64,000 nt of DNA from a virus (Duplodnaviria > Caudoviricetes), in IMG/VR virus record IMGVR_UViG_2850126897_000005, positions 19,416 to 83,415 of that record. The stretch is one strand, 5' to 3'. The notes beneath the pieces were generated by a model, which was given only the letters and a program-made list of their open reading frames with translations, did no database searches and was not told the origin of the DNA. The position numbers and the translations under genes are program-made. How positions within the stretch are numbered: position 1 is the stretch's first letter; each line of letters starts with the position of its first letter. Below, piece after piece: positions 7,312 to 42,828 of this stretch.

Positions 7312-8334
7312 ATGGCTAAACCGGATTGGGGGACGCTACAGCAACAGTTCCTCACCGAACATGCTAAATCAGGAATATCCCCTAAAGAGTGGTGTGAAGA
7401 CCAGGGACTTAATTACGCAACAGCAAGGCGATATATTAAAAGGCCAGCTGCGCAATCTGCACAAAAAACTGCGCAAAAGAAATTGCGCACTGCGCACGAT
7501 AAAGAATGCGCGAAAGAGCCTATGTGTAATGGTCCTATACCAACTGCGCAAATTAGCGAACAAGATAATGCGCACGATGATGAAAACACATTTAACCTGC
7601 GCAACTACGGGCTTAACGATATGCAGTTCAGATTCGTCAATGAGTATCTTGTCGATTTAAATCGGACGGCAGCTTATAAGAGAGCCGGTGGAAATGGCGA
7701 AGGTAATACTGCTTATGTTGGCGCTAGTCGGATGTACAGAAATGCTAAGGTCAATCGCGCAATTACAGACGCATTAGCGGATAGAGAACGCAGAACTCAA
7801 ATTACCCAAGATGCCGTATTGAAAATGTGGTGGGATATTGCGACCGCAGACGTTAATGAACTAACTGAATATCGTCGATTATGTTGTCGTCATTGTTGGG
7901 GCTTTGGATTTAATTATCAGTGGCGTGATGCGGTTGAATATGATGATGCAGTGAAAAAAGCCATGGCAGCAAGTAAACCACCTCCGCAAGATGTGGGTGG
8001 TTACGGTTACGATGACACATTAGACCCTAACCCTGATTGCCCTCGATGTAATGGCACGGGTATTGGCCGTGCGTATTTTCATGATACGCGTGACTTAACT
8101 GGTGCGGCTCGTCGTTTATTCGCTGGTGTGAAAGAGGGTAAGTTTGGTGTAGAGATGATCACTCGTAATCAAGACGATGCGCTTAAAATGGTCGCACAAC
8201 ATTTAGGAATGGTTAAGAACAAGACTGAGATAACTGGTGCTGATGGTGGACCCATTCAATCAACAGGGATAGACCTTAGTCATTTGAGTTTTGAGCAGCT
8301 TTTGCAATTGAGAAGCAAAAATAAGAAATATTAA
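7312..8334 (+). CDS. terS: Terminase small subunit
   Basis: N-terminal HTH (MAKPDWG...LNYATARRYI), FVNEYLVDLNRTAAYKRAG core, CCRHCWG/CPRCNG zinc motif. Confidence 0.85.
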   Translation: MAKPDWGTLQQQFLTEHAKSGISPKEWCEDQGLNYATARRYIKRPAAQSAQKTAQKKLRTAHDKECAKEPMCNGPIPTAQISEQDNAHDDENTFNLRNYGLNDMQFRFVNEYLVDLNRTAAYKRAGGNGEGNTAYVGASRMYRNAKVNRAITDALADRERRTQITQDAVLKMWWDIATADVNELTEYRRLCCRHCWGFGFNYQWRDAVEYDDAVKKAMAASKPPPQDVGGYGYDDTLDPNPDCPRCNGTGIGRAYFHDTRDLTGAARRLFAGVKEGKFGVEMITRNQDDALKMVAQHLGMVKNKTEITGADGGPIQSTGIDLSHLSFEQLLQLRSKNKKY

Positions 8335-8340
8335 TATAAT

Positions 8341-8369
8341 TTGCATATTTATCAACTAGGTATTATAAA
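8341..8369 (+). promoter_or_regulatory. Putative sigma70 promoter of the FRG gene
   Basis: TTGCAT-N17-TATAAA. Confidence 0.5.
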
Positions 8370-8401
8370 TTACATTCTAAATTTTTAATAGGCTAAATTC
8401 A

Positions 8402-9118
8402 ATGCAGAATAACTCAAAAAAAATAATTATAGATAGTTTTATTTCGTTTATAGAAAACATAGAAAGATTAAGCAAAAGTAAAAATCTGGTTTTATTTAGA
8501 GGGCAGTCAGTAAAAGGAAATTTACTGCCGGGCATATGTAGAAAAAATCCTGAGATAAATACTACAAACATTGAAAAAAATAAGTTAGATGAATTAAGAC
8601 GAATGGGGAGTTCTTTTTTTATTGATTCTAATATGAATGATTGGGATTTGTTAGTTCTAGCTCAACATTTTGGAATGAAGACTAGGTTACTTGATTGGTC
8701 AAGTAATCCTTTAGTTGCATTATGGTTTGCTTGCGACGGTGATTCTGTAAAGGATAGATATGTTTATGCTTTAGTGCCTGAAAAATATTCAACGGATAAA
8801 AAAGGTCCATTTGAGCTCGGTGCTACACAAGTATTTAAACCTAATCTAAATAACCCTAGAATAATAGCACAGCAAGGATGGTTTACTTGTCATAGATATT
8901 CTAGAAAAAATAAAAAATTTATTCCCCTTGAAAAAAATATTGATATAAAAAATCAAGTAATCGAAATGAAAATAAAATCAGAATGTCTTATGGATATACA
9001 AATTTCATTAAATAGGTGTGGGATTAATAGTCGCTCTATATATCCAGATATGGAGGGGTTATGTAAATATTTAAATAGGGATGAATTTAATTTTGAGGTA
9101 AACGGTGATGATATTTAA
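8402..9118 (+). CDS. FRG-domain protein inserted between terS and terL
   Basis: FRGQ...LLPGICR...LAQHFGMKTRLLDWSSNPLVALWFAC signature; AT-rich. Confidence 0.88.
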   Translation: MQNNSKKIIIDSFISFIENIERLSKSKNLVLFRGQSVKGNLLPGICRKNPEINTTNIEKNKLDELRRMGSSFFIDSNMNDWDLLVLAQHFGMKTRLLDWSSNPLVALWFACDGDSVKDRYVYALVPEKYSTDKKGPFELGATQVFKPNLNNPRIIAQQGWFTCHRYSRKNKKFIPLEKNIDIKNQVIEMKIKSECLMDIQISLNRCGINSRSIYPDMEGLCKYLNRDEFNFEVNGDDI

Positions 9119-9164
9119 CATAAGGTATGAACTAACACTTTAAATGTCATCATATGTACATGGG

Positions 9165-9191
9165 AGGTATATCTTTTATAAAGATATACCT
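9165..9191. repeat. Perfect 12-bp inverted repeat
   Basis: AGGTATATCTTT-tat-AAAGATATACCT between FRG and terL. Confidence 0.85.
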
Positions 9192-9234
9192 ATGTTTATA
9201 TTTCATTATTAATCTTCAATACCAAGTGATAGCT

Positions 9235-10632
9235 ATGAATATCGATTTCAGCTTGTTTGATGAAGAGATCGAAAGGGAGATAGCGCGCCGCAGTTTGCAT
9301 GAATTCATTCAGTATATAAACCCTGAATACATTACAAGCCATTTCTCTCAAACAGTGTGTGATGCGCTCGACCAGTTCTTGGTTGATATGATGGACGGGA
9401 AGCGCCCTAAGTTAATATTAGGGGCACCGCCACAGCACGGTAAATCTGATATTGTTTCCCGTTATCTTCCCGCTTACTTCTTTGGAAAATACCCTAACAT
9501 GCGTGTTGGGGCGCTGTCGTATTCGTCTGATTTAGCCGGTGATATGAACACCGATGTTCAGCGAATTATGATGTCGGCTGAATATCGTGTGTTATTTCCT
9601 AAGAGCTGGTTAGGTAACAAGCCCGAGAATGGCATCGCTGTTAAACGTAACTCTGATGAGTTCGGCATTGCCAATCACAAAGGCAGCTATGTATGTGCGG
9701 GTGTTGGTGGACCATTAACGGGTAAGAAAGTTGACCTCGGGATTATTGATGACCCGATAAAGAACTCGAAAGAAGCACTTAGCCCAACGGTTAAAAAGTC
9801 GATTTGGAACTGGTACGTTTCGACCTTTAAGACTCGCTTATCAAAAAACAGCGGTGAAATCATCATGGCCACTCGTTGGGCGACCGATGATTTATCTGGC
9901 CAATTAAAAGAAAAAGCCCCTGAAACCAAGGTACTTGCATTCCCTGCCATTAATGAGCAAGGGGAAGCGTTGGTACCTGAACTTCACCCTATCGATAAGC
10001 TGTTGGAAACCAAAGCAATACTGGGTGATTATTTCTGGTCTGCGATGTATCAACAGTCACCGAAGCCGGGCGACGGTCAAATCTTCCACGAAGAGTTTGT
10101 ACGCTATTACTTACCTAAAGACCTACCTGATAAATTCGACAAGGTTATTCATAGTTGGGATATGACCTTTAAAGACAGCGACGGTACCGACTATGTAGTG
10201 GGGCAGGTTTGGGGCAAGAAAGATGCCAATGCCTATTTGCTCTATCAAATCCGAAAACGCATGAGCTTCACCCAAACTAAGGATGCGGTGAAGCTGCTAG
10301 CGGAAAAATTCCCTGAAGGTCGGCGTAAGCTGGTGGAAGACAAAGCCAATGGCCCTGCAGTTATCGACTCTCTTAAATCATCGGTATCAGGACTAATCCC
10401 CGTTGAGCCTGACGGCAGTAAAATCGCACGTGCTCATGCCTGCACCGCTGAGTGGGAGGCTGGCAATGTGTGGTTACCGCACAAAGACATTGCACCGTGG
10501 ATAGTGGAAACCGTGGAGGAAATTACCACGTTCCCGTTCGCTGGCCATGACGATACGGTGGATGCGATGACGCAGGCGCTGCGTGATTTATACCAGAAGA
10601 AAAAAGGCGGTTTCTTCACAACCAAGAGGTAA
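9235..10632 (+). CDS. terL: Terminase large subunit
   Basis: Walker A PPQHGKS, Walker B IIDDP, C-terminal nuclease SWD...HDDTVDA; start set at ATG 9235. Confidence 0.93.
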   Translation: MNIDFSLFDEEIEREIARRSLHEFIQYINPEYITSHFSQTVCDALDQFLVDMMDGKRPKLILGAPPQHGKSDIVSRYLPAYFFGKYPNMRVGALSYSSDLAGDMNTDVQRIMMSAEYRVLFPKSWLGNKPENGIAVKRNSDEFGIANHKGSYVCAGVGGPLTGKKVDLGIIDDPIKNSKEALSPTVKKSIWNWYVSTFKTRLSKNSGEIIMATRWATDDLSGQLKEKAPETKVLAFPAINEQGEALVPELHPIDKLLETKAILGDYFWSAMYQQSPKPGDGQIFHEEFVRYYLPKDLPDKFDKVIHSWDMTFKDSDGTDYVVGQVWGKKDANAYLLYQIRKRMSFTQTKDAVKLLAEKFPEGRRKLVEDKANGPAVIDSLKSSVSGLIPVEPDGSKIARAHACTAEWEAGNVWLPHKDIAPWIVETVEEITTFPFAGHDDTVDAMTQALRDLYQKKKGGFFTTKR

Positions 10633-19391: not shown

Positions 19392-19844
19392 ATGCATGAT
19401 GTATCTGCAACCGGCTTGAGTTTTACCATTCAAGCCAGCAAAACCTTTCCCACTGGGATTTTAATTACCGCCTTTGCTGACGATGCTGACCCGCTGGATT
19501 TACCGGCTGTCGATATTGCGCAAACGGGTATGGACATTAACGGTAACTTGGTGAGTTGGTCCACACCGACACCACAAACCGTCACGATTAACGTATTGGC
19601 GGGCAGTGAAGAAGATCAAAACTTGTCTATTTTGCTCGAGGCGAATACCGCGAAAAAAGGGCGCCGACACGCAGGGGATATTATTACTTTTGTTGCGTCT
19701 TATGGCGATGGCTCAACGGTCACGGCGCGCAATGGCAAAATCACCAATGGTAGTCGTGGCAACTCAGCCGCCTCGGCAGGGCGTTTGAAATCTAAAGCCT
19801 ATACCTTTGTGTTTCAGGATTTCGACAGTACGCGTATCCGTTAA
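19392..19844 (+). CDS. Tail tube protein
   Basis: 150 aa after sheath; FADDADPLD motif. Confidence 0.8.
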   Translation: MHDVSATGLSFTIQASKTFPTGILITAFADDADPLDLPAVDIAQTGMDINGNLVSWSTPTPQTVTINVLAGSEEDQNLSILLEANTAKKGRRHAGDIITFVASYGDGSTVTARNGKITNGSRGNSAASAGRLKSKAYTFVFQDFDSTRIR

Positions 19845-29027: not shown

Positions 29028-30662
29028 TTAAAAGATCACTTGTTGTTCAATTGTTTTTTTGTTATCCATATCTACAATGAAATTAATGGATTTTATATTT
29101 TTAGGTGAAACTGGAATAGTGAAACCAACTAAATTCATACCATAAATAGAGTCTATCTTGTTATTCTCTTCAGTATGTATTTTGTTTTTGTCATCCATTA
29201 CTATTATTCTATAGCTTTCATTTGACATTAACTTTTTGTTATCAACAAGTTGTAGGGCTATAGTTGTTCCTTTCAAAAATCTATCTTTACCTAAGAATAG
29301 ATTTGAAACATTTGTATTTGTTACATTAGGTAGTGGCAGTTTTATCCCATCTAAAATAACTGCGTAGTTATAGTCTATTTTATAGGTTTCAATCGGATGG
29401 CTAATGTTAAAGTATTCAGCCATTGCATTAGGATTATGATATAAATCCATTTCGTCACCACCTCTGAAAGAGCGTGGATAGTAATACTCGGGTATCTTAT
29501 CGGTTTTAGAATCACCAATTATTTCTTCGTTTATTGCATAAATTCTTATTTTCTCTTGAGTCGTTATTGCATTATATGAATAGACCATTTGAATATATGA
29601 AAAAATGAAACCACAAAGAGTTAAAATACCAATAAAATATGTAATTGCGATTCCTCTTTTATTTTTCATACTAAATGCGTATCCAATAGAAAAGGAGCAT
29701 GAAATAACATAAAAAAGGTGAGCGCCACTCAAAGACCTAGTAGGAAATGTTGGGGATGCAACCATGGAAAATATACTTAAAAAGCCTAATACGATAAACA
29801 ATAATGAAAGATAAAAGCTTTTTGACTTCTTTTCACCTACATAAGTTAGCAGTAAAAGTAATGAAGCAACTAGTACACCCCACGTTTTAGTAAATGAATG
29901 TGAAAGTTTATCCGATAAAAAATATGTGATTTTTTCTATCGTACTGAGGGAGTAAAAGTCAGTGAAAAGAGCGGCTCGATGAAAATTGCCAGGGCTCGAA
30001 ATCAAAGTTACAAATCCAAGTATAACAAGTACAGATGAAAAGATAATAAGTCTGTTTTTATGTTTAAAAAAAACATAACAGGAGGTAATTACTGAAATGG
30101 CAACTATAATCCAACTCGTATTTTCATTACTGCATCCAGCAAAAAAAGAACTGATTATGAGAGGGATTAGACACTTTTTATCATCAAGATAACGAAATAA
30201 AAAATAAAGATAAATAACAATAAATAAATTTGTGACAAGATAATTTGCTGCACCAACAACCCAAAAAACAATTTGACCAAGAGCTGGGTTTGTAACCCAG
30301 TAAATTGAAAATAAAACAATAAACTGTAAAAAAAATGTTTTTTTACTTGTGTCAGAGTTACTACTTATTTTAGTAATTAAAAAGATCATCATTGTTAATA
30401 CAAATGCAATCATACTATTTTTTAGTATGTTAGAGCCTGATGTAAGAACTAGAGTGCTAAAATAGTCTGATACAAATCTTCCACTCCATGAAAGGTAGTG
30501 AGATACATGAGCAGATAATGAATTTCCTTTAATATAATACACATAGTCATCAGAATGCATAGGTGTATAGTATTCGACTAAAAAAATAAGCGAAAAGACA
30601 ATTAGGACACTTATGTAGCCTAAATTAATACGTTTTAAGTAGTTAGTCATTTTTGTTCTCAA
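29028..30662 (-). CDS. gtrC: Serotype-specific polytopic glycosyltransferase (GtrC-like)
   Basis: About 11 TM segments, TPMHSDDY periplasmic acidic motif, WSGRF; third gene after gtrA and gtrB. Confidence 0.75.
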
Positions 30663-31581
30663 TATAATCTGTCTTTTTTAGCAAGTATCTAGGCCTTGCT
30701 TTGCTTTCAGTATAAATACGACCAATATACTCACCGAGTACACCAATACCAATAAGCTGAACTCCACCTAAAAATAGAATAGAAACAAGTAATGAAGGAT
30801 AACCAGGAACAGGATTACCCCAAATTAATTTATCTACCATCATCCAACCACCATAGATAAAAGATGCAAAAGCAACAAATAAACCAATGTAAGTCCAAAC
30901 GCGTAATGGAAAAGTAGAAAAACTCGTTATACCTTCTAAGGCTAAGTTCCATAATTTCCAGCCATTGAATTTACTTTCTCCAGCAGATCTTTCTGCTCTG
31001 TTGTATTCAACAACATCAATTTTTCCACCCACCCATGAAAGGATACCTTTCATGAATAAATTACGCTCAGGTAATAATTTTATATATTCGACACTCTGAC
31101 GAGATATCAACCTAAAATCGCCAACATTTTCTTCAATTTCAGGCGCGCTAATTTTATTATGGAGCTTGTAAAACCATTCAGCTGTTTTGCGTTTTAACCA
31201 TGTATCACTAGTACGATTAGCTCTTTTTGCGAGAACAATATCTGCGCCTTGTTGCCATTTATCTATGAGCTGTGGAATAACATCAATAGGATCTTGAAGG
31301 TCTACATCAATAGGTATTACAGCTTCTCCAGTTGCGTATTCAAGGCCCGCAAACAAAGCCGGTTCCTTACCAAAATTTCGCGTGAAGTTTAAAGGGAGCA
31401 CTAAAGGGTCAGCAATAGCTAATGCATTGATAATATTTTCAGTGCTGTCTTTACTTCCATCATTTATGAAGACTATTTCGATATCATATTGATTAAGAAT
31501 CGGGTGTTCTCTTACTGACTTATAAAATATAGGGATAGCTTCTTCTTCGTTATAAACGGGCACTACTAATGATATTTTCAT
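30643..31581 (-). CDS. gtrB: Bactoprenol glucosyltransferase
   Basis: GT2: [27 protein letters not shown]; two C-terminal TMs. Confidence 0.95.
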
Positions 31582-31952
31582 TGTGGAGTATCTCTGAAAA
31601 CAAAGATTTTGGAGTAAAGAAAACCTAATACGAGGCTAATCGAAGAAAAAATTATTAAAGTTGCGATAGGGGGGAATCGTAGCTGGTCTGAAACATAACC
31701 AGTCAAATAACTTAATAGCCCCATAAATAAGGTAAATGATAAGTATCGTGCTGTAGTCGCTTTAGCTTTGAACGTGAATTTTGCATTAGCAAAAAAGGAA
31801 AAACTGACAGCAGCTATGAAGCCTATTAAGTTAGCTATAGCTTGAGAGGTTGAAAGGAACACTGTCAGTAGCCCAAAAATGGACCAATGTATAAGAGTGT
31901 TTAAAATTCCAACCGAAAAGTATTTAGTGAATAACTTAATCATTTCAATCAT
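31578..31952 (-). CDS. gtrA: Bactoprenol-glucose flippase
   Basis: Four TMs; [14 protein letters not shown] and [11 protein letters not shown] motifs. Confidence 0.93.
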
Positions 31953-32329: not shown

Positions 32330-32373
32330 TGGTGGGCTGGCGGGAGTTGAACCCGCGTCCGAAATTTCTACAT
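32330..32373 (-). pseudogene. ssrA: Displaced 3' fragment of tmRNA gene, att core at the prophage junction
   Basis: Minus strand ATGTAGAAATTTCGGACGCGGGTTCAACTCCCGCCAGCCCACCA matches the enterobacterial ssrA 3' end except the T of CAGCTCCACCA is missing. Confidence 0.88.
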
Positions 32374-32436
32374 TCTTTATTGTATGTTGTGAATTTATTT
32401 ATTTAATATAATTTTCAATTGGTTGCGTTACATTGG

Positions 32437-32486: not shown

Positions 32487-33542
32487 TTAAAGGTATGCGA
32501 TTGGCTCCCCTGTGTGATTTTTAATAAGACCATAATCAAAATTATTTGTTATGAGGGTCACATCATTATACATATATTGTTCTACCCAAAAGAAATCTAT
32601 ACTCTTTATTGGTTCTTTATTAACAAACATAAAAATATCAAGAGTAATAGAATGCAAAGATTTTAATAAACTTTTCAGAAAAATATTATCTAATAATTTG
32701 GTGTTAAATAGTGAATAGTGATAATTTGATGATTTATCAGAGGAATAAGATAATTTCGATATATCTATTTCAAGTGCTTCCATTAGCCTAATTATAGTTG
32801 ATTCTAGGGATAAAATGAAATCTTTATATTTACTAGGTTCTTCATATGACGTTGGTATGATGTATTTACCAAATATAATATTAATATCTACCCATGACTG
32901 GTTTATTTCATCAAAATAATGAGTGGATATTCCAGATAATTCACTGGTTAACCCTCTTGAATCATTGGAAAAAATAAACATTTTATTGTATAGATAATAT
33001 GGGTTCTTAATATTAATTAGTGTTTTTATTTCTAATTCATTCGGGGTTTCTTTTTTATTATTTAGTGGGTGTTTTTTTACAATAGTAATTATTTCATGTT
33101 TTAAGTTTTTCTCAAAGTACTCTATAGCTGATTTTTTATGGTTTAAATAAAAGTCAATGCTATTTTTAGACTGGGTTTGGCTTATTTGCTCATTTGTTTG
33201 AATTGTTCTATGTATGTTATTAACAATAGCAGTAAACGGTATTGAGAGCGACAACAAACCTAGAGGGAACGCATTGTTAACAATGAAATCTTTGTAATTA
33301 TCTCCTCCTAACTGTATATCAAAAGGGTACCATGAAAAAATACCAAAATATAAAAATGAAAATATGGGGATAATTATAGCAAGCCAAAATAATGATTGTT
33401 GCGTTAACGGCTTTGAGTCCATCCCAAAGGGTTTGGCAACATATGCAACTGTCATAATTGTAGCAATAGCATGAAAGTATATAAAAATTGCTAAAAAGGA
33501 GTCATGAAATTTTTCTACCCAAAGAGAAAAAAAAGCATTCAT
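32487..33542 (-). CDS. 3-TM membrane protein, NIHRTIQT family, copy A
   Basis: Starts 2 nt after int stop; LFWLAIIIPI, PLGLLSLS, NNIHRTIQT motifs. Confidence 0.8.
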   Translation of the reverse strand: MNAFFSLWVEKFHDSFLAIFIYFHAIATIMTVAYVAKPFGMDSKPLTQQSLFWLAIIIPIFSFLYFGIFSWYPFDIQLGGDNYKDFIVNNAFPLGLLSLSIPFTAIVNNIHRTIQTNEQISQTQSKNSIDFYLNHKKSAIEYFEKNLKHEIITIVKKHPLNNKKETPNELEIKTLINIKNPYYLYNKMFIFSNDSRGLTSELSGISTHYFDEINQSWVDINIIFGKYIIPTSYEEPSKYKDFILSLESTIIRLMEALEIDISKLSYSSDKSSNYHYSLFNTKLLDNIFLKSLLKSLHSITLDIFMFVNKEPIKSIDFFWVEQYMYNDVTLITNNFDYGLIKNHTGEPIAYL

Positions 33543-33544
33543 CT

Positions 33545-34561
33545 TTAATCTTCCATAAAATTCAAAGGGTTTTTAGTCACTGCATCTTCTAAATGACTTG
33601 GTGCAAAGTGTGCGTAAATCATCGTCATTTTGATATCAGAGTGTCCGAGAATATCTCTTAAAACTAAAATATTGCCGCCGTTCATCATAAAATGGCTGGC
33701 GAAAGTATGGCGTAAAACGTGGGTGCATTGTCCTTCAGGTAATTCAATTCCTGCTTTATTGACAGTGCGCTCGAATGTTTTACGGCAAGGGGTGAATAGC
33801 TTCCCACGCTTCTTAGGAATTTCATCATATAATTCCTTTGAAATCGGAACGGTACGCACCTTTTTACTTTTGGTATTTCTGTAGGTAATACGGTAGGGCG
33901 TGACTTGGCTACTTTCTAAATTTTCGGCTTCACTCCAACGAGCTCCTGTTGCCAGGCAAATTTTGGAGATCATCAAAACGCTTTCGCTATTAGATTCTGA
34001 AAGTGCTTCAAGTAATAATTTAATTTCATCTTGATATAAAAACGTCACCATACTTTCATCAACTTTGAAAGTAGGTAGCCCAGCTAATGGGTTGGCCAAT
34101 GACCAATGACCTAATTTTTTTAGCGTACCAAAAACCGCAGATAAATTACGTTGCTCATGATTTACAGTAACGGGCTTAATTGCCATTAATCGACCGTTAA
34201 TATCAGGAATTTCACCCTTTAGGCGTCCTTCACGATAAAGGCTAAAATCAGAAGCGGTTAACTGGGATGCAATAGGATCACCAAGCCCTGCACAAATGGC
34301 CTTGAGTTTTGACATCATTCTGTCAGCATCGGTTAACGTTCTGCCATATAAATCATGCCACTGCGTGATTAAATCCGATAATCGCCTGTTATCCTGTTTT
34401 TCACCTAGCCACGGTTTATCTTCCATTTGTCCCAGGATATATTTTTCATAGGATAAGGCTTCGCCTTTGGTCACGAACTTTTTGCGAATACGTTTACCAT
34501 TGACGCCATTCGGTCTTAAATCACACAGCCATTCGCCAGACTCAATTTTTCTTACAGTCAT
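33545..34561 (-). CDS. int: Tyrosine integrase, P2/186 family
   Basis: R (TGARWSE), HVLRH, LGH...TMIYAH catalytic residues. Confidence 0.96.
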   Translation of the reverse strand: MTVRKIESGEWLCDLRPNGVNGKRIRKKFVTKGEALSYEKYILGQMEDKPWLGEKQDNRRLSDLITQWHDLYGRTLTDADRMMSKLKAICAGLGDPIASQLTASDFSLYREGRLKGEIPDINGRLMAIKPVTVNHEQRNLSAVFGTLKKLGHWSLANPLAGLPTFKVDESMVTFLYQDEIKLLLEALSESNSESVLMISKICLATGARWSEAENLESSQVTPYRITYRNTKSKKVRTVPISKELYDEIPKKRGKLFTPCRKTFERTVNKAGIELPEGQCTHVLRHTFASHFMMNGGNILVLRDILGHSDIKMTMIYAHFAPSHLEDAVTKNPLNFMED

Positions 34562-34569
34562 CTCTATAT

Positions 34570-35160
34570 CTATTGGTTTTCAATAATCGTCACTACACGA
34601 CCTAACACGGTTAAGTCTTCTAAATCACAATCAAATGGAATTCCAACGCCTGAAACACGGACTTTTTTAATTGGAATTCTTGTTAGCTCACGAACGCTAA
34701 TTTTCCCCTCAATATTGACAAGCCATTTGCCATCAAAAACATCTGCAAATTTTTTATCGACGATTGAATAGGTATCGCCATCTTGAACACTCATTGGTTC
34801 ATCAGGGAGTGGGGCGGTATTTTTAAACATGACCTTATCGAACATCACGCTACTGGCTGGTATTAATTCACCATTCATTAAACGGAAATTAGACAGTTTG
34901 AGGATATCTATTTTTACATTTTCAAAAGGTTTTCCTTTACCAAATGTAAGCCATTCAATATTTGCACCAGTTTCTATAGTACAACGAACTACCATATCAG
35001 CAGGGAAAACAGCACGTTTGTAGCGCCCTGAAATTCCACTAGACCCCATATTGAAATGCTCAGCCATCTGTAATTTTGATGAAAAACCATAGGCTTCCAT
35101 GATTCTATCTAAAACGCTTGCATTATCAGGGCATGAAATAAAATCAAATGTCTCGCACAT
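34570..35160 (-). CDS. cI: 186-type CI repressor
   Basis: N-terminal HTH (VLDRIMEAYGF...WLTFGKG) and 186-like C-terminal domain; GGAG SD before ATG 35160. Confidence 0.88.
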   Translation of the reverse strand: MCETFDFISCPDNASVLDRIMEAYGFSSKLQMAEHFNMGSSGISGRYKRAVFPADMVVRCTIETGANIEWLTFGKGKPFENVKIDILKLSNFRLMNGELIPASSVMFDKVMFKNTAPLPDEPMSVQDGDTYSIVDKKFADVFDGKWLVNIEGKISVRELTRIPIKKVRVSGVGIPFDCDLEDLTVLGRVVTIIENQ

Positions 35161-35181
35161 CGAAAACTCCAAATCTCTCAC

Positions 35182-36642: not shown

Positions 36643-36894
36643 ATGAATATACCAGAACCGATGTTTACGCCTGTATATGATTTAGGTAATGGCGAAGATA
36701 CCACGATGCTTGCTGTCATAAAGCAGAACCGTGAAGATGAAAAAAATACACGTTCGATCATTTTCGCTTCTCGCTTACGTCGCCTTTCCAATCAAGTCAT
36801 GAAAGACAAGCTGGATTATGCGCAAATAGCTCAACTGTTAGAGAGTGAAGCCAATCACATCGAACACCAGGCGCAAGAACTGAATTATGTTTGA
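36643..36894 (+). CDS. P2-family early protein (DUF2732-like)
   Basis: ASRLRRL...AQLLESEA motif; overlaps repA start. Confidence 0.6.
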   Translation: MNIPEPMFTPVYDLGNGEDTTMLAVIKQNREDEKNTRSIIFASRLRRLSNQVMKDKLDYAQIAQLLESEANHIEHQAQELNYV

Positions 36895-38944
36895 AGCGCA
36901 GGAACACAATAGCGACGTATATATTTCAATACGTCGCCATCAAGAAGCCAATAAGCCAGAGTTGCCGAAATCAGCGACTCTGGCTGAACGCATTATGTGG
37001 GATGCCAATAGAGATGATGCCGAGTGGCGTCATGAAATTATTGCGCACGTCCCCGATTTCCTTGCCATCTATTTTGCTACCAAATACGCCAAAATCTTTA
37101 AAAAATCAGGTCGTCGTCGTGCCAATGAATTTTTACGCAAAACCGCTAAGAATGTATTGCCACGATTTGAACGTGTGATGAAACAGTATGAGTTTAAACA
37201 CTATGCATCGGGTAACGTGCCATTTCCTTTTATCGAACAACTGGAAAATATTGCGCAGTTAGATAGAACGGTTATCAAATCACTAGCCAGTGATATTGCT
37301 AGCTTTATGAGTGAAAACTACCAATCAGCAACAGAGCAATACGCGAACAACGACCCACAAAATGAATATGAAGCCCGTGAGCGTTTAGATAAAACCTATT
37401 CATTTATCGCTAAATTAACGCTGCAATCAGGCACACAGCCCCCTTATTGGCAACAATTCATGCATGGCCGCAAGAAACCAACCGACGATCAGCTATGTGC
37501 TGCACTGCTACGCATGTTTGATGCTGCGTGGTGGTACCGTCGTTTAAAACGTTTGTGCGATGTAAAACGTGAACACCTCGCCATTGCGATTGGTCAGGTA
37601 CAAAAATCAGCATCGCCTTATGTCTCTAAAACGACATTGCATCGATGGGTAGAACAAAAGCGCGCTAACTGGCAATACCTAAAAGATTTTGAGTTAGAAG
37701 ATGAGGACGGTAACCGTTCTGATTTATCAAAAATGGTATTGGGTAGCGTGGCAAATCCTGCCGTTCGTCGTTGCGAATTGATGGCGCGAATGCGTGGCTT
37801 TGAGGATTTAGCAGATGAAATGGGTTGTGTGGGCGAGTTCTATACCATCACCGCACCTTCAAAATACCATTCAGCCTACCAAGCAGGCGGCTTTGTCACT
37901 AATTGGATGGGAAATGATCCGCGCGCAACACAAAAGTACCTTTGTGGCGTTTGGCAAAAAATCAGAGCGGCTTACGCAAGAGCTGGCATTCGTGTGTTTG
38001 GCTTTCGCGTTGTTGAACCCCACCACGATGGCACACCACATTGGCATATGTTGTTATTTGTTCGCCCTGAACAGGTAGACGAGCTGCGCGATATCTTTTG
38101 TTATTACGCTCGGTTGGAAGATTCGGAAGAACTGCAATCTTATAAAGCGCTAAAAGCCCGTTTTCATGTAGAGCCTATCGATAAAGAGAAAGGCAGTGCC
38201 ACAGGTTATATCGCTAAGTACATCAGTAAGAATATTGATGGCTATGCTATGGATGATGAAATTGATGAAGAAACAGGACAGAAAGCCAAAGAAATGGCGC
38301 GTTCGGTTTCGGCTTGGGCATCACATCATAAAATTAGACAGTTTCAACAAATAGGCGGTGCACCTGTGTCTGTATGGCGTGAATTACGTCGTATGGGTGA
38401 TGACGTCGAAGCATCAACAGGTTTAGATGTTGAGTTTGCCGAGGTTCACAAAGCGGCAGATACAAGCAATTGGAGCGAGTACACGAAATTACAAGGTGGT
38501 GCATTTGTACGACGAGCTGACCTTATTGCGCGCCTTTGGTATGAGCGTGAAGAAAAGACCAACGCATACGGTGAGCCCGTCGATTGCATCAAGGGGGTTT
38601 ACTGTACTTTGGTGGGTAACGACTCCCCAATTATCACACGCATTAAGAACTGGCAGATTGTGCCGAAGTTAGCCGAAGCGACAGCGGAGGCTGGTTTTGA
38701 TGGCGCGATTAGCGCCCCTTGGAGTTCTGTCAATAACTGTACGGAGGTTCTCGGTACGGTTAAAGATAGAAATGTGGCCATCAATAATATTGTGGATGCA
38801 GCCAAGTCGATTGGGATAATTTTTGACCCTGATAAGGATAAACCAATGTTGCTTTCATTATGGAAAGGAGCTGTTTATACAGAGAATGGCCAAAGCGTGA
38901 GGTTTCACGGGAATGGCCATATTCAGAGGGTAGCGACTAAGTAA
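36887..38944 (+). CDS. Rolling-circle replication endonuclease gpA
   Basis: FYTITAPSKYH, EPHHDGTPHWH (HUH) and YIAKYISKNIDG motifs. Confidence 0.95.
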   Translation: MFEAQEHNSDVYISIRRHQEANKPELPKSATLAERIMWDANRDDAEWRHEIIAHVPDFLAIYFATKYAKIFKKSGRRRANEFLRKTAKNVLPRFERVMKQYEFKHYASGNVPFPFIEQLENIAQLDRTVIKSLASDIASFMSENYQSATEQYANNDPQNEYEARERLDKTYSFIAKLTLQSGTQPPYWQQFMHGRKKPTDDQLCAALLRMFDAAWWYRRLKRLCDVKREHLAIAIGQVQKSASPYVSKTTLHRWVEQKRANWQYLKDFELEDEDGNRSDLSKMVLGSVANPAVRRCELMARMRGFEDLADEMGCVGEFYTITAPSKYHSAYQAGGFVTNWMGNDPRATQKYLCGVWQKIRAAYARAGIRVFGFRVVEPHHDGTPHWHMLLFVRPEQVDELRDIFCYYARLEDSEELQSYKALKARFHVEPIDKEKGSATGYIAKYISKNIDGYAMDDEIDEETGQKAKEMARSVSAWASHHKIRQFQQIGGAPVSVWRELRRMGDDVEASTGLDVEFAEVHKAADTSNWSEYTKLQGGAFVRRADLIARLWYEREEKTNAYGEPVDCIKGVYCTLVGNDSPIITRIKNWQIVPKLAEATAEAGFDGAISAPWSSVNNCTEVLGTVKDRNVAINNIVDAAKSIGIIFDPDKDKPMLLSLWKGAVYTENGQSVRFHGNGHIQRVATK

Positions 38945-38998: not shown

Positions 38999-40099
38999 TT
39001 AGCCATAGTGAAATTCAAAATATTCATTAAGGGCATTTTTAGATTCTATTTTTATTTCTTTTAATTCTATGCAAAGATTAAATAATTTAGTTATTAAAAT
39101 GTTTTTTGTTTCAATGAAATAACTAGGAGGTGGTTCGTTAATTATATCCAAAATACTATTATATACTAACACTAGCATTCCTATATAATTACTAACCGCA
39201 GTCATGAGATAATATATATTTTTATAATTCAAATAATCCATTGTTAAAGCCATTAATTTCTCTTCCTCAGGGTCAATACGTTCAATTTCATTTATTCCCT
39301 CATCTTTTAATGATTTAATTACTGTATCCAAATAATATTCTAGTTGGCTATCTTTGTTTTGTAAGTAACATAGAGTTATTATTTCTTTTATTTTCCTGGA
39401 TAATTTATTGTTAATATCCACTATGCGTATTTTTTCTTTATTACAATGAATAAAACCACTGTATATTTGTTGAATAATTTTATCCACTTCAACGTTTAAA
39501 GAAAAGAAATTGTTTTTTATTTTTGAAATAAATTCACGATCTACGGAATTATTTGCTCCTAATACAGGGTTACTTTTCTTATATATTTCGGAGTACAATG
39601 TGTTAGGTGATAATATAGATATTTCCAATTCTGTTTCTGGTTGTTTTTTTATAACTGATTTAAACTCATCAATAATAAATTTATGATGAGCATAAAAACT
39701 ATCTGAAATATTTTTTTGCTCAGAAACGGAAATTTGTTTTTCAGTTTGTATCGTTCTATGAATATTCGAGACTATAACTCCAAAGATCGGAGATAGTGCC
39801 AGTACACCTAATGGGAGCTTACTTTCATCAAAAAAAACACTAAATCCAGCTGAGTCAAAATTTATCTCGTTTGAAAGAAATACAAAATATTCAAGGTAAA
39901 AGAAAACACCGATAGGCACTATAATTCCTAACCAAAACAAGTATTGCTTATCTAAGCTATCTGATTTTATCTCAAAAGAAACCTCTCTAGTTCCTTTTAA
40001 GGATGCATCAGTTACTAAATAAGATATGGCAAAAAGTACTGCTATTGTGACTAGTAGCATAATCACTGGAATTTGTTCAATAGGTGATGTTCCCTTCAT
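38999..40099 (-). CDS. 3-TM membrane protein, NIHRTIQT family, copy B
   Basis: LFWLGIIVPI, PLGVLALS, SNIHRTIQT; ATGA overlap with copy C. Confidence 0.8.
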   Translation of the reverse strand: MKGTSPIEQIPVIMLLVTIAVLFAISYLVTDASLKGTREVSFEIKSDSLDKQYLFWLGIIVPIGVFFYLEYFVFLSNEINFDSAGFSVFFDESKLPLGVLALSPIFGVIVSNIHRTIQTEKQISVSEQKNISDSFYAHHKFIIDEFKSVIKKQPETELEISILSPNTLYSEIYKKSNPVLGANNSVDREFISKIKNNFFSLNVEVDKIIQQIYSGFIHCNKEKIRIVDINNKLSRKIKEIITLCYLQNKDSQLEYYLDTVIKSLKDEGINEIERIDPEEEKLMALTMDYLNYKNIYYLMTAVSNYIGMLVLVYNSILDIINEPPPSYFIETKNILITKLFNLCIELKEIKIESKNALNEYFEFHYG

Positions 40100-41139
40100 T
40101 TTACATCCTTGTTATATTTTACTGATGCTTGCCCTAACTGTTTTCTAATCATATATTTACCATAAAAATTTTGAGTAAACTTATTTTCGATTGAAAAATC
40201 ATACCCTATAGAATAGAGTAATTTTTCTATGAATTTATCAATTTCTCGTAGTGCTTCCCATATATTATGCATGATATTTAATTGATGATAAGTTTCACCC
40301 TTATCATAATCATAAGTAAAATCTAAGTATTTGTAATTCTCTTGCTCTAAACCAAAGTGCTCAAATAGATAAATTATGCTATCGTGTATGTCATAAATAA
40401 TTTTGTTTATTCTTGTTTCATTTCCTACATACCTTATTATTGTTTCATCTGAGTTAATATGAAAATTCATCAGGTAACTCGTGGAATGTTTGTATAAATC
40501 ACCATATAGCTTATCTAGTTCAGTAATGAAATTATTAGATATGGCATTATTAGCACCTGCTAGAACAGATGACTCTTTGAAAATATCTCTATATAATTTC
40601 ATTCTGCTTTTTATTGTATATTCACATGATAAAAACCCAACTTTAAATTCTTTTAATTCATCACATATTATTTTCATGTGGGAGTTAAAAGAATCAAAGT
40701 TGTTTTTTAATTTTGTTATTTTTATTTGATCTTCCGTTCTTTCAATTTGTTCTTTTGTTTGTATAGTTCTATGAATATTTGATACGAATACCCCAAATAT
40801 TGGAGAGAATGCTAGAATACCCAAAGGTAATTTACTTATTTCAAGAAATTTATTATATCCTTGCCAAGAGCTATCTAATTCAGTTCCATACCAAGCAACA
40901 ATCCCAAATAAAATAAAAGAGAATATTGGTAATAATATAGCTATCCAAAATAAATTTTGTTTATCTAAACTATCAGGTGTTAATTTGACCATCTCCCTAG
41001 CTCTTTTACAAAAAAGAATGAGAAGAATAGTTGGTGGAAAAATACACACGATGAGTATGAACCACCAATTTAACTGCGTTTGTTTTTTATTTTTTTTATT
41101 TTGTTCAATATCCATACCACCCCCTATCAAAATTTGCAC
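40096..41139 (-). CDS. 3-TM membrane protein, NIHRTIQT family, copy C (start may be ATG 41115)
   Basis: LFWIAILLPI, PLGILAFS, SNIHRTIQT. Confidence 0.8.
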   Translation of the reverse strand: MQILIGGGMDIEQNKKNKKQTQLNWWFILIVCIFPPTILLILFCKRAREMVKLTPDSLDKQNLFWIAILLPIFSFILFGIVAWYGTELDSSWQGYNKFLEISKLPLGILAFSPIFGVFVSNIHRTIQTKEQIERTEDQIKITKLKNNFDSFNSHMKIICDELKEFKVGFLSCEYTIKSRMKLYRDIFKESSVLAGANNAISNNFITELDKLYGDLYKHSTSYLMNFHINSDETIIRYVGNETRINKIIYDIHDSIIYLFEHFGLEQENYKYLDFTYDYDKGETYHQLNIMHNIWEALREIDKFIEKLLYSIGYDFSIENKFTQNFYGKYMIRKQLGQASVKYNKDVK

Positions 41140-41193
41140 AGAATTCTAATCGATCAAAAAATTTTAAACTACCTCTTTCATACTAGGTAAATT

Positions 41194-41213
41194 TACTGTA
41201 TAAATAACCAGTA
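41194..41213. promoter_or_regulatory. LexA (SOS) box overlapping the tum promoter
   Basis: TACTGTATAAATAACCAGTA (CTG-N10-CAG); plus-strand TTTCAT-N17-TATAAA at 41176-41204. Confidence 0.85.
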
Positions 41214-41242
41214 AAGTGATTTTATGTAAGAGGATCATGTAG

Positions 41243-41449
41243 ATGCTAGAGGCGTCAGTGGCGTTGGAACGGATAGAAATCATCGCCAGGTTTGGGAGTT
41301 TGGATTTATGTAATGATAAAGAGCGCCAAGTTGTATTAGCGCTGATTATGGAAATCGCAGAGGACACACGCAGAATTGAGAAACATAAAATAAAAAAGTC
41401 ACTCGAAAGTGACCAACGGAAAGCAGCTTTAAACGGGGCTGGACTTTAA
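41243..41449 (+). CDS. tum: Tum-like SOS antirepressor
   Basis: VALERIEIIARF...KERQVVLALIMEIA resembles 186/Fels-2 Tum; LexA box upstream. Confidence 0.78.
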   Translation: MLEASVALERIEIIARFGSLDLCNDKERQVVLALIMEIAEDTRRIEKHKIKKSLESDQRKAALNGAGL

Positions 41450-41692
41450 CAAGTCTAGCGCCATTTGGCGCTGTTCAGGGTTTAAATTCTGTATCATCGA
41501 ACCAATCATTTTATTACTTTTCGCGCTTGGGCTAATCGTATGGTCAAACGTCAGGCTTAATACATAAGTATGGCCGCATTCGACGTCACTACATGCACAA
41601 TAGAGATCTGAAATTTCACGATGCTTTCTATTTGATTTACGAATAATCGCCTTTTCCCCACACTCAGGGCAGAATATTTTTAATACTCGCAT
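41429..41692 (-). CDS. ogr: Ogr/Delta-family late activator
   Basis: CPECG...LYCACSDVECGH zinc finger; start set at ATG 41692. Confidence 0.88.
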   Translation of the reverse strand: MRVLKIFCPECGEKAIIRKSNRKHREISDLYCACSDVECGHTYVLSLTFDHTISPSAKSNKMIGSMIQNLNPEQRQMALDLLKSSPV

Positions 41693-41802
41693 GTTCCAAA
41701 TCTCCGCTTGATAATGACCCCGTAATTTTAGCTTATTTTTACACATTTTTCATTTCCCTATGAACATTAAATTCCGTAAACATCATTAATTTTGCGTTAT
41801 TT

Positions 41803-42828
41803 TTAATTAAATTGGTGGCTATCTTCTTGAAAAGTGATCTTTAAATGATCGGGCACCTCACCATCATTATTTATCGCGTTTGCAAACATGCGCTGAACAG
41901 GAATAATTTCATCTTGTCGGTACGCTTCACGGGCATTGCGCGGGTCACCTAAGCCGCCAACATTGCCAGGAATAATCCCTGCCAACCCCGCAGGGAAACG
42001 ATGTGCGGTTAAAATATCCTGCGCACTGATGTTTTTCACATTACTAAATTCATCATTGGCCGAAATATCACCAACAGGAATAAACTTGATACCGTCCGCA
42101 TCCCCATTGGGAATATGCACAAACATGGTTTCAAAGTTACCAATCCCTTTGCTTTGCTCTAATTTTTTGGTGATCATCACTTCCACTTCATCGGTGAGCA
42201 TTGGATCATTACAAAAAATCATTCCCCCAGTATGTGCCCCGTTGTGGTAGTAACGACGACGAAAGATGGTGGCCTCACTGTTTAACATGGCCGCATGAAT
42301 GCCCCCGATATAATCAGGAATGCCATAAACTTGCTGTTGGGGGTCATACTGTTTTATGTAAATCACATCGTCGGGGGTATACACCATCGGCTCACCTTCT
42401 TGCAAAATCACAAAATCATCGTTTTTGCGACGACGCATAAACAGCGCTGGCAGCACATACAGCCCAACCACTTCCCCGTAATAATTGCGCAGCTTTAAGA
42501 TGGGCGTATCACCAAACACAATATAATCCAACACGCTGGCACGCAGCTCCTGATGCGTGAGGCCACCGCCTTGGTAATCCGATAACACCATATTGGCACG
42601 CGCATGAATAACGCCCCCGTGTTGGCCATTTAAATTCACCAATTGCGCCAAGGCGGTGCGGTCTATCGGTAAGCTGTAATGGTCATAATCATTGTCATAC
42701 CAAATGTTTTGGTATTCCGTATGGGTGGTTAAAATGGGTTCTGGCTTGCCTAATGTGATGATGTTCATCGATTTTTGGCTCGTAGTTTGCTTTTGTGCGG
42801 TTTTCCGTAACTTTTTCTTACTCATCAT
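41803..42828 (-). CDS. Portal protein (gpQ, PBSX type)
   Basis: YDPQQQVYGIPDY and AHRFPAGLAG motifs. Confidence 0.93.
   Translation of the reverse strand: MMSKKKLRKTAQKQTTSQKSMNIITLGKPEPILTTHTEYQNIWYDNDYDHYSLPIDRTALAQLVNLNGQHGGVIHARANMVLSDYQGGGLTHQELRASVLDYIVFGDTPILKLRNYYGEVVGLYVLPALFMRRRKNDDFVILQEGEPMVYTPDDVIYIKQYDPQQQVYGIPDYIGGIHAAMLNSEATIFRRRYYHNGAHTGGMIFCNDPMLTDEVEVMITKKLEQSKGIGNFETMFVHIPNGDADGIKFIPVGDISANDEFSNVKNISAQDILTAHRFPAGLAGIIPGNVGGLGDPRNAREAYRQDEIIPVQRMFANAINNDGEVPDHLKITFQEDSHQFN

Follow-up and report, generated by a model that had tools for sequence, protein, structure and literature searches.

In retron Ec48 (Retron-Eco6, a type IV retron), the gene of a membrane effector adjoins that of a reverse transcriptase (RVT_1). 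The transmembrane (TM) helices of this effector are needed for defence, and cell suicide follows the inhibition of RecBCD by phage proteins (bioRxiv 10.1101/2020.06.21.156273). In phages of the P2 family, one recent survey gives the interval between repA and portal as a major defence hotspot and the int–att interval as a minor site with 3% of systems (PMC13586616). Here we analyzed a window of 64,000 nucleotides (positions 19,416–83,415 of IMGVR_UViG_2850126897_000005, an 83-kb IMG/VR provirus record), in which a P2-family prophage occupies both sites: paralogous genes B and C lie in the repA–portal interval and a third copy, A, next to int, as the initial annotation had placed them. The membrane defence family suggested there is a real and uncharacterised one, predicted to be membrane-anchored and located at prophage cargo sites; its main home and the coupling of B with C had to be corrected. 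We propose, at a probability of about 0.5, that A, B and C act on their own, as abortive-infection or exclusion effectors made by the lysogen, in which a variable cytoplasmic domain would replace the retron as sensor or brake and a conserved polar stripe on the juxtamembrane helix would serve oligomerisation or gating.

A conserved membrane module joined to a hypervariable domain

The open reading frame (ORF) calls and pairwise BLASTP E values far past chance (7e-24 for A–B, 2e-23 for A–C and 4e-36 for B–C) establish A, B and C as three real paralogous genes. The motifs originally listed as shared correspond to invariant columns of the three-way alignment, the HRTIQT coordinates assigned in B and C are correct by codon arithmetic (Table 1), and the C stop overlaps the B start in the reported ATGA, with an AAGGA ribosome-binding site upstream. 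The AT-richness noted before is equally evident, each gene having 27% GC versus 45–48% in the phage backbone (repA, portal, terL), which we count as a sign of foreign origin. For C, the ATG at 41115, giving 339 aa, is more likely to be the true start than the GTG of the ORF call, because GGGGGTGG precedes it and the resulting N-terminus agrees with the MDIEQ starts of homologues.

Hydropathy and the AlphaFold models of B and C concur on three hydrophobic N-terminal helices, in line with the three TM helices first described, and predict that the last of them runs on as one long helix with HRTIQT as its first cytoplasmic turn. In both models this helix is followed by a small hairpin, a short helix bearing the LY motif and four or five long helices; because the order of elements is kept, the C-terminal domain is modeled as one fold that evolves very fast or is exchanged by recombination. 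Residues 1–148 of B are 78–93% identical to those of its relatives P0004–P0011, and the other 218 residues only 19–25%, which bears out the C-terminal divergence claimed earlier. K and R abound in the loop before TM2, and the TM2–TM3 loop is acidic, so that by the positive-inside rule the C-terminal domain would be cytoplasmic.

An exhaustive profile search retrieved 1088 representative clusters at E ≤ 1e-3, including 246 at E ≤ 1e-30. Members are annotated solely as "hypothetical protein" in Providencia, Proteus, Morganella, Serratia, Enterobacter and Citrobacter; further ones occur in Kosakonia, Lelliottia, Erwinia, Pseudomonas, Klebsiella phages and Vibrio phages, making the family mainly one of Enterobacterales, where 17 of 401 species-representative genomes (about 4–5%) hold a match at E ≤ 1e-4. 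Conservation across 166 representatives is concentrated in two clusters, one at the start of TM2 (L49, Q52, F55, P62) and one covering TM3 and the juxtamembrane helix (P96, H114, R115, T116, Q118, T119, Q122, I123, K129, N130, D133, H138, K140, Y169), reaching 99% for H114, 100% for Q118, 98% for K129, 97% for N130, 98% for D133 and 95% for Y169; past about residue 180 there is essentially none.

A, B and C all match phrog_17460 over their conserved N-terminal 200–300 residues (E 1e-27 to 2e-38), a PHROGs v4 family that carries no annotation and is of unknown function, so membership gives no function. Pfam and NCBIfam scans of the proteins returned nothing meaningful, and no PADLOC-DB v2.0.0 protein model matched B or C at E ≤ 1. 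Checked in this way against named defence systems, the family is indeed without a name, as had been supposed; it is not, however, without relatives, since intermediate members match NF038235 and profiles link the two families.

Distant kinship with the retron Ec48 effector

NF038235 (retron_Ec48_2TM, curated cut-off 65 bits) matches three remote family members at E values of 5e-9, 8e-4 and 6e-3, all under its cut-off. With hhalign, the family aligned to these intermediates at 98.5% probability (E 2e-15) and the intermediates to four true Ec48 effectors at 96.5% (E 7e-10). A direct comparison of large profiles, 166 family sequences versus 19 Ec48 effectors, gave 66.9% (E 5e-5), with 113 columns aligned in the same register. 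A language model placed B and, independently, A next to clusters bearing the name retron Ec48 family effector membrane protein, at scores of 0.89 (172 shared features), 0.90 (177) and 0.89 (167). A shape search returned a target-normalised TM-score of 0.74 to a 178-aa cluster, 18% of whose members carry PF28197.

Other comparisons weigh against this kinship and, with it, against an Ec48-like mode of action. NF038235 has no match to A, B or C at E ≤ 1 and none in the whole 83-kb record at E ≤ 10. By precomputed annotations, PF28197 is present in 16 of 16 true Ec48 effectors, whereas 36 homologues of the family had no precomputed Pfam hit. The 18-sequence seed alignment compared directly with four Ec48 effectors scored a non-significant 0.6%, the HRTIQT column is a gap in the Ec48 effectors, and only four of the ten best named hits in the atlas agree, which triggers its own warning. 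Because A, B and C score under every curated threshold, the seed comparison is not significant and HRTIQT is gapped, the homology rests on transitivity together with a moderate direct score.

Common ancestry of the membrane module with the Ec48 effector was thus found at the level of a superfamily. The genomic context differs: four of four true Ec48 effectors used as controls directly follow an RVT_1 gene, whereas no RVT_1 was found in the 83-kb record, and the only RNA family detected between 31500 and 42000 was a tmRNA fragment, leaving A, B and C without a retron neighbour. Taken together, sequence comparison suggests that the family is a distant member of the superfamily of the Ec48 effector, being neither a member of the Ec48 family itself nor part of a retron.

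Genomic sites of the family and the surrounding prophage

The family chiefly occupies the int–att position of 186-like prophages: the gene lies directly 3' of int on the same strand in 70 of 80 IMG/VR loci, 69 of them with cI upstream, and in the repA–portal (repA–ogr) hotspot in 4 of 80, all sister phages of this element. The hotspot, initially taken for the home of the family, is therefore a second site, used by B and C in Providencia phages, and A is the canonical copy. The same arrangement of cI, int and family gene recurs in Serratia and Enterobacter genomes, where host chromosome or another island starts right after the family gene, as well as in an E. coli phage-plasmid and Klebsiella phage Kp4865-2. 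A Vibrio prophage of the Vinavirales carries its copy at the end of the element, after an S24 repressor. Apart from B and C, almost every member stands alone, the remote ones included, and these have no recurring neighbour.

Several individual loci illustrate the range of settings. In Proteus mirabilis (L021–L023; L021 ~7794–9245), a 414-aa member directly follows what remains (65 aa) of a P2-type integrase; NADAR/PRTase-CE and DUF4747 genes lie nearby, as does the tail end of a lambdoid prophage. Because the gene persists beside this remnant, it looks like cargo kept by the host after prophage decay. An Enterobacterales genome (L127, 3729–10963) contains a tandemly duplicated 4.2-kb unit with a filamentous-phage-like II/X-family replication protein and a 252-aa remote member, which suggests that inovirus-like elements carry the family too. 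In Serratia marcescens (L017, 11073–17110), the DNA just past the end of a prophage with a family gene holds a gene with a Cap4 nuclease domain, HamA plus a DEAD helicase (Hachiman-like) and a further helicase, so that the attachment site abuts a defence island.

The four sister loci (L024–L027) encode terL, portal and ogr proteins 91–100% identical to those of this element (tblastn), with one family gene each in the repA–ogr hotspot (361, 365, 388 and 434 aa). Two of the four also hold unrelated hotspot genes (313 and 248 aa) without a Pfam match. The content between repA and portal/ogr thus varies among otherwise near-identical phages, as it does for hotspot cargo. In L025 (3789–5513, minus strand) the 313- and 248-aa genes lie between ogr and tum, further unknown cargo of the hotspot.

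Gene order and Pfam matches identify the element as a 186-type member of the P2 family, and homologues point to Providencia as its likely host. Its genes run cI–int–A, then CP76 (cII-like), DUF5347, DUF2732 and repA, then B and C, a tum-like ORF, ogr, portal and terminase (Table 1). A starts 2 nt past the int stop and is the final gene before an att fragment derived from ssrA, about 70 nt beyond the end of A, at which ARAGORN found no intact tmRNA gene; this fragment is the probable att junction. Just ahead of the shared junction, the end of the neighbouring prophage carries a gtrA/gtrB/gtrC-like O-antigen modification cassette (29028–31952, minus strand; 31–35% GC) with GtrA_DPMS_TM and Glycos_transf_2 matches and a 544-aa DUF6056 membrane protein, likely a serotype-converting module.

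Table 1. Positions of the three paralogues and of surrounding features in the 64,000-nt window
Feature	Position	Strand	Description
tmRNA (ssrA) fragment	32330..32419	minus	Rfam RF00023, 21 bits, E 2e-5, under gathering score
Copy A	32487..33542	minus	351 aa; phrog_17460 E 2e-38
HRTIQT of A	33195-33212
int	33545-34561	minus	Pfam Int_N/Phage_integrase; with cI, 186-type lysogeny operon reading into A
cI	34570-35181	minus	Pfam Phage_CI_repr/Phage_CI_C
repA	36887..38944	plus	gpA-type replication initiator; homologues carry Phage_GPA; one hotspot border
Copy B	38999..40099	minus	366 aa; phrog_17460 E 4e-34; AF2 model (pLDDT 81) with predicted TM helices at ~12-30, 53-77 and 95-113, then predicted cytoplasmic helical C-terminal domain
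HRTIQT of B	39743-39760		juxtamembrane
Copy C	40096..41139	minus	347 aa from GTG 41139; phrog_17460 E 1e-27; AF2 model (pLDDT 71) with helix order as in B
HRTIQT of C	40756-40773
LexA-box-like CTGT-N8-CCAG	41196..41211		CTGTATAAATAACCAG; in the 127-bp gap between the C start at 41115 and the tum-like ORF
tum-like ORF	41243-41449	divergent from C	68 aa
ogr/delta late activator	41429-41746	minus	Pfam Ogr_Delta; other hotspot border
portal	41803-42828	minus	similarity to Phage_portal genes of sister loci; other hotspot border

The gap between C and the tum-like ORF contains a LexA-like box, 32 bp upstream of the latter and, on the opposite strand, 81 bp upstream of the probable start of C. With 11 instances in the window against 8.5 expected, the loose pattern CTG-N10-CAG shows no enrichment, so that a role for the box is suggested solely by its position and the AT-rich spacer; SOS control of C and B would be possible. 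Tum and the family gene stand in the same divergent layout in sister locus L025.

Proposed function, rival explanations and known systems

We propose that one prophage-borne family of single-gene inner-membrane effectors is represented here by three independent paralogues, A, B and C. Each protein would join a membrane module, distantly related to the Ec48 effector, to a fast-evolving cytoplasmic helical domain; two TM helices are predicted to form the core of the module, which in this subfamily gains a further helix at the N-terminus, and a long juxtamembrane helix carries the pattern H-R-T-x-Q-T...Q...K-N..D....H.K. The lysogen would make A from the cI–int transcript, and B and C from a promoter adjacent to tum, possibly under LexA. 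The proteins would then stay inactive in the inner membrane until an infecting phage gives a cue that the variable C-terminal domain detects, whereupon the membrane module would oligomerise and damage the membrane, aborting the infection. Three different C-termini would broaden the range of phages recognised. We favour this effector model because the gene sits in a lysogeny operon, is spread over unrelated phage types and combines a conserved effector with a hypervariable domain. A more far-reaching version, which we hold at somewhat less than even odds, is that the family forms a widespread, retron-less, Ec48-effector-like class of single-gene immunity in which phage cues would act directly on a hypervariable cytoplasmic domain that fires a conserved membrane-damaging module, with int–att of 186-like prophages as a dedicated lysogeny-promoter site and three stacked specificities in this phage, one of them possibly SOS-controlled.

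In addition to the discrepancies with Ec48 described above, three results count against the effector model. A scan for consensus promoters upstream of C (41140–41240) found no site. Outside prophages, many members adjoin housekeeping genes and not defence islands. Remote members have only housekeeping or unrelated phage genes as neighbours, without a recurring partner, and no partner able to restrain a toxic effector was found.

The same neighbourhoods lend some weight to the rival that fares best, although we consider it unlikely: that the proteins do not serve defence and instead benefit the phage or change the host, for example as a prophage-addiction toxin, as a membrane-anchored protein that modulates induction or the timing of lysis, or as a factor of lysogenic conversion with an effect on envelope physiology. 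Such roles would agree with the lack of any matching defence model, with the occurrence of one member in the duplicated filamentous-phage-like unit, and with the distance of 81 bp between the start of the B and C genes and a LexA-like box shared with tum, which would suit expression during induction. What speaks against them is that the gene is dispensable for the phage, near-identical sisters differing in its copy number and C-terminus, that it is found in phages as unrelated as P2-like, lambdoid, Vinavirales and inovirus-like ones, and that immune sensors typically pair a hypervariable domain with a conserved effector module, as this family does.

Non-lethal superinfection exclusion, in which inner-membrane proteins would block phage DNA entry or injection and the cell would not be killed, appears rather improbable. 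SieA, Sim and T4 Imm are models for exclusion at this stage, and the P2-like phage K139 carries its exclusion gene glo in a lysogen-expressed region, a precedent that, like the predicted inner-membrane location, the expected expression of A from the lysogeny operon and the position at the prophage end, counts in favour of exclusion. However, the hypervariable part of the A/B/C proteins is the C-terminal domain, which the positive-inside rule and the analogy with Ec48 effectors would place in the cytoplasm, whereas variation in injection blockers is usually periplasmic; moreover, the only relatives of known function act through cell suicide.

That B and C form an obligate two-component system, be it a heteromeric channel or an effector plus regulator, is very improbable: ATGA would couple their translation, their membrane modules (37–41% identical) could co-assemble and a tandem pair also follows int in L048, but each of the four sister phages has only one family gene at this site, a second tandem copy occurs in just 1 of 80 loci (L048), of which 70 have the gene immediately 3' of int, the remote members stand alone and no conserved pairing of B-type with C-type was seen. 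Because the sister phages are single-copy, remote members solitary and the tandem arrangement found once, stacking of paralogues fits better than an obligate heteromer, and the coupled system of the initial annotation is probably a stack of two paralogues. The tandem genes of L048 (5953–7680) provide a second case of stacked paralogues, at int–att.

New here are the presence of three paralogues in one phage, the use of the repA–ogr hotspot, the single-copy sisters and the quantified split between N- and C-terminal parts. Should the anti-phage role of the effector model hold, a common single-gene defence family would be added to temperate phages of clinically relevant Enterobacterales (Providencia, Proteus, Serratia, Enterobacter, Klebsiella and E. 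coli). The killing module of retron Ec48 would then be able to work without its retron, sensing having shifted to a swappable domain, and int–att, through cI–int read-through, would be a regular site of defence cargo. The sharp boundary between conserved and hypervariable parts makes the family naturally suited to mapping the way in which specificity is encoded.

Among other described proteins, putAbiC (PF16872), which is like lactococcal AbiC, resembles the family in length and in an architecture that places a helical domain after N-terminal TM helices, and is a weak atlas neighbour (0.76–0.78 by features, TM-score 0.31–0.41 by shape). At the level of sequence it was rejected: hhalign against 13 Enterobacterales putAbiC proteins gave 3.6%, and no PF16872 match, judged on its 80-position domain, was present in the record at E ≤ 10; a weak PF16872 match in a Pseudomonas genome proved to be a TPR protein. 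No SLATT family, the family of pore-forming effectors, was among the Pfam matches of 18 family members at E ≤ 10, and the membrane partner of DRT10 is a SLATT protein unrelated to A, B and C. Against known structures, a profile search of PDB sequences returned designed coiled coils only (E > 0.02), Foldseek gave no PDB match at E ≤ 0.001, and VIA-align against 48,161 chains reached a best Z of 7.8 with generic helical bundles, a kind of match that the tool rates as uninformative for helical proteins.

The searched text of two sources on P2 hotspot cargo (Rousset 2022, PMC9122126; PMC13586616) does not name the A/B/C family among its systems. The cargo described there, including tin, old, PARIS and AC1 TIR+TM, occupies the same sites, repA–portal as for B and C and int–att as for A, and A, B and C are likewise AT-rich and swappable between sister phages. 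With the Ec48 effector the family shares an architecture of N-terminal TM helices followed by a predicted cytoplasmic helical domain, a Proteobacterial distribution and carriage on mobile elements; the aligned core takes in the periplasmic loop and the last TM helix, together with an N..H..H.K-like helix and an (L/W)Y..IF..S..G segment. It differs from the Ec48 effectors in being about 110 residues longer, in its extra N-terminal TM helix and invariant HRTIQT(E/K)xQI, and in its setting: the Ec48 effector adjoins RVT_1, whereas A, B and C stand without a reverse transcriptase or msr/msd nearby.

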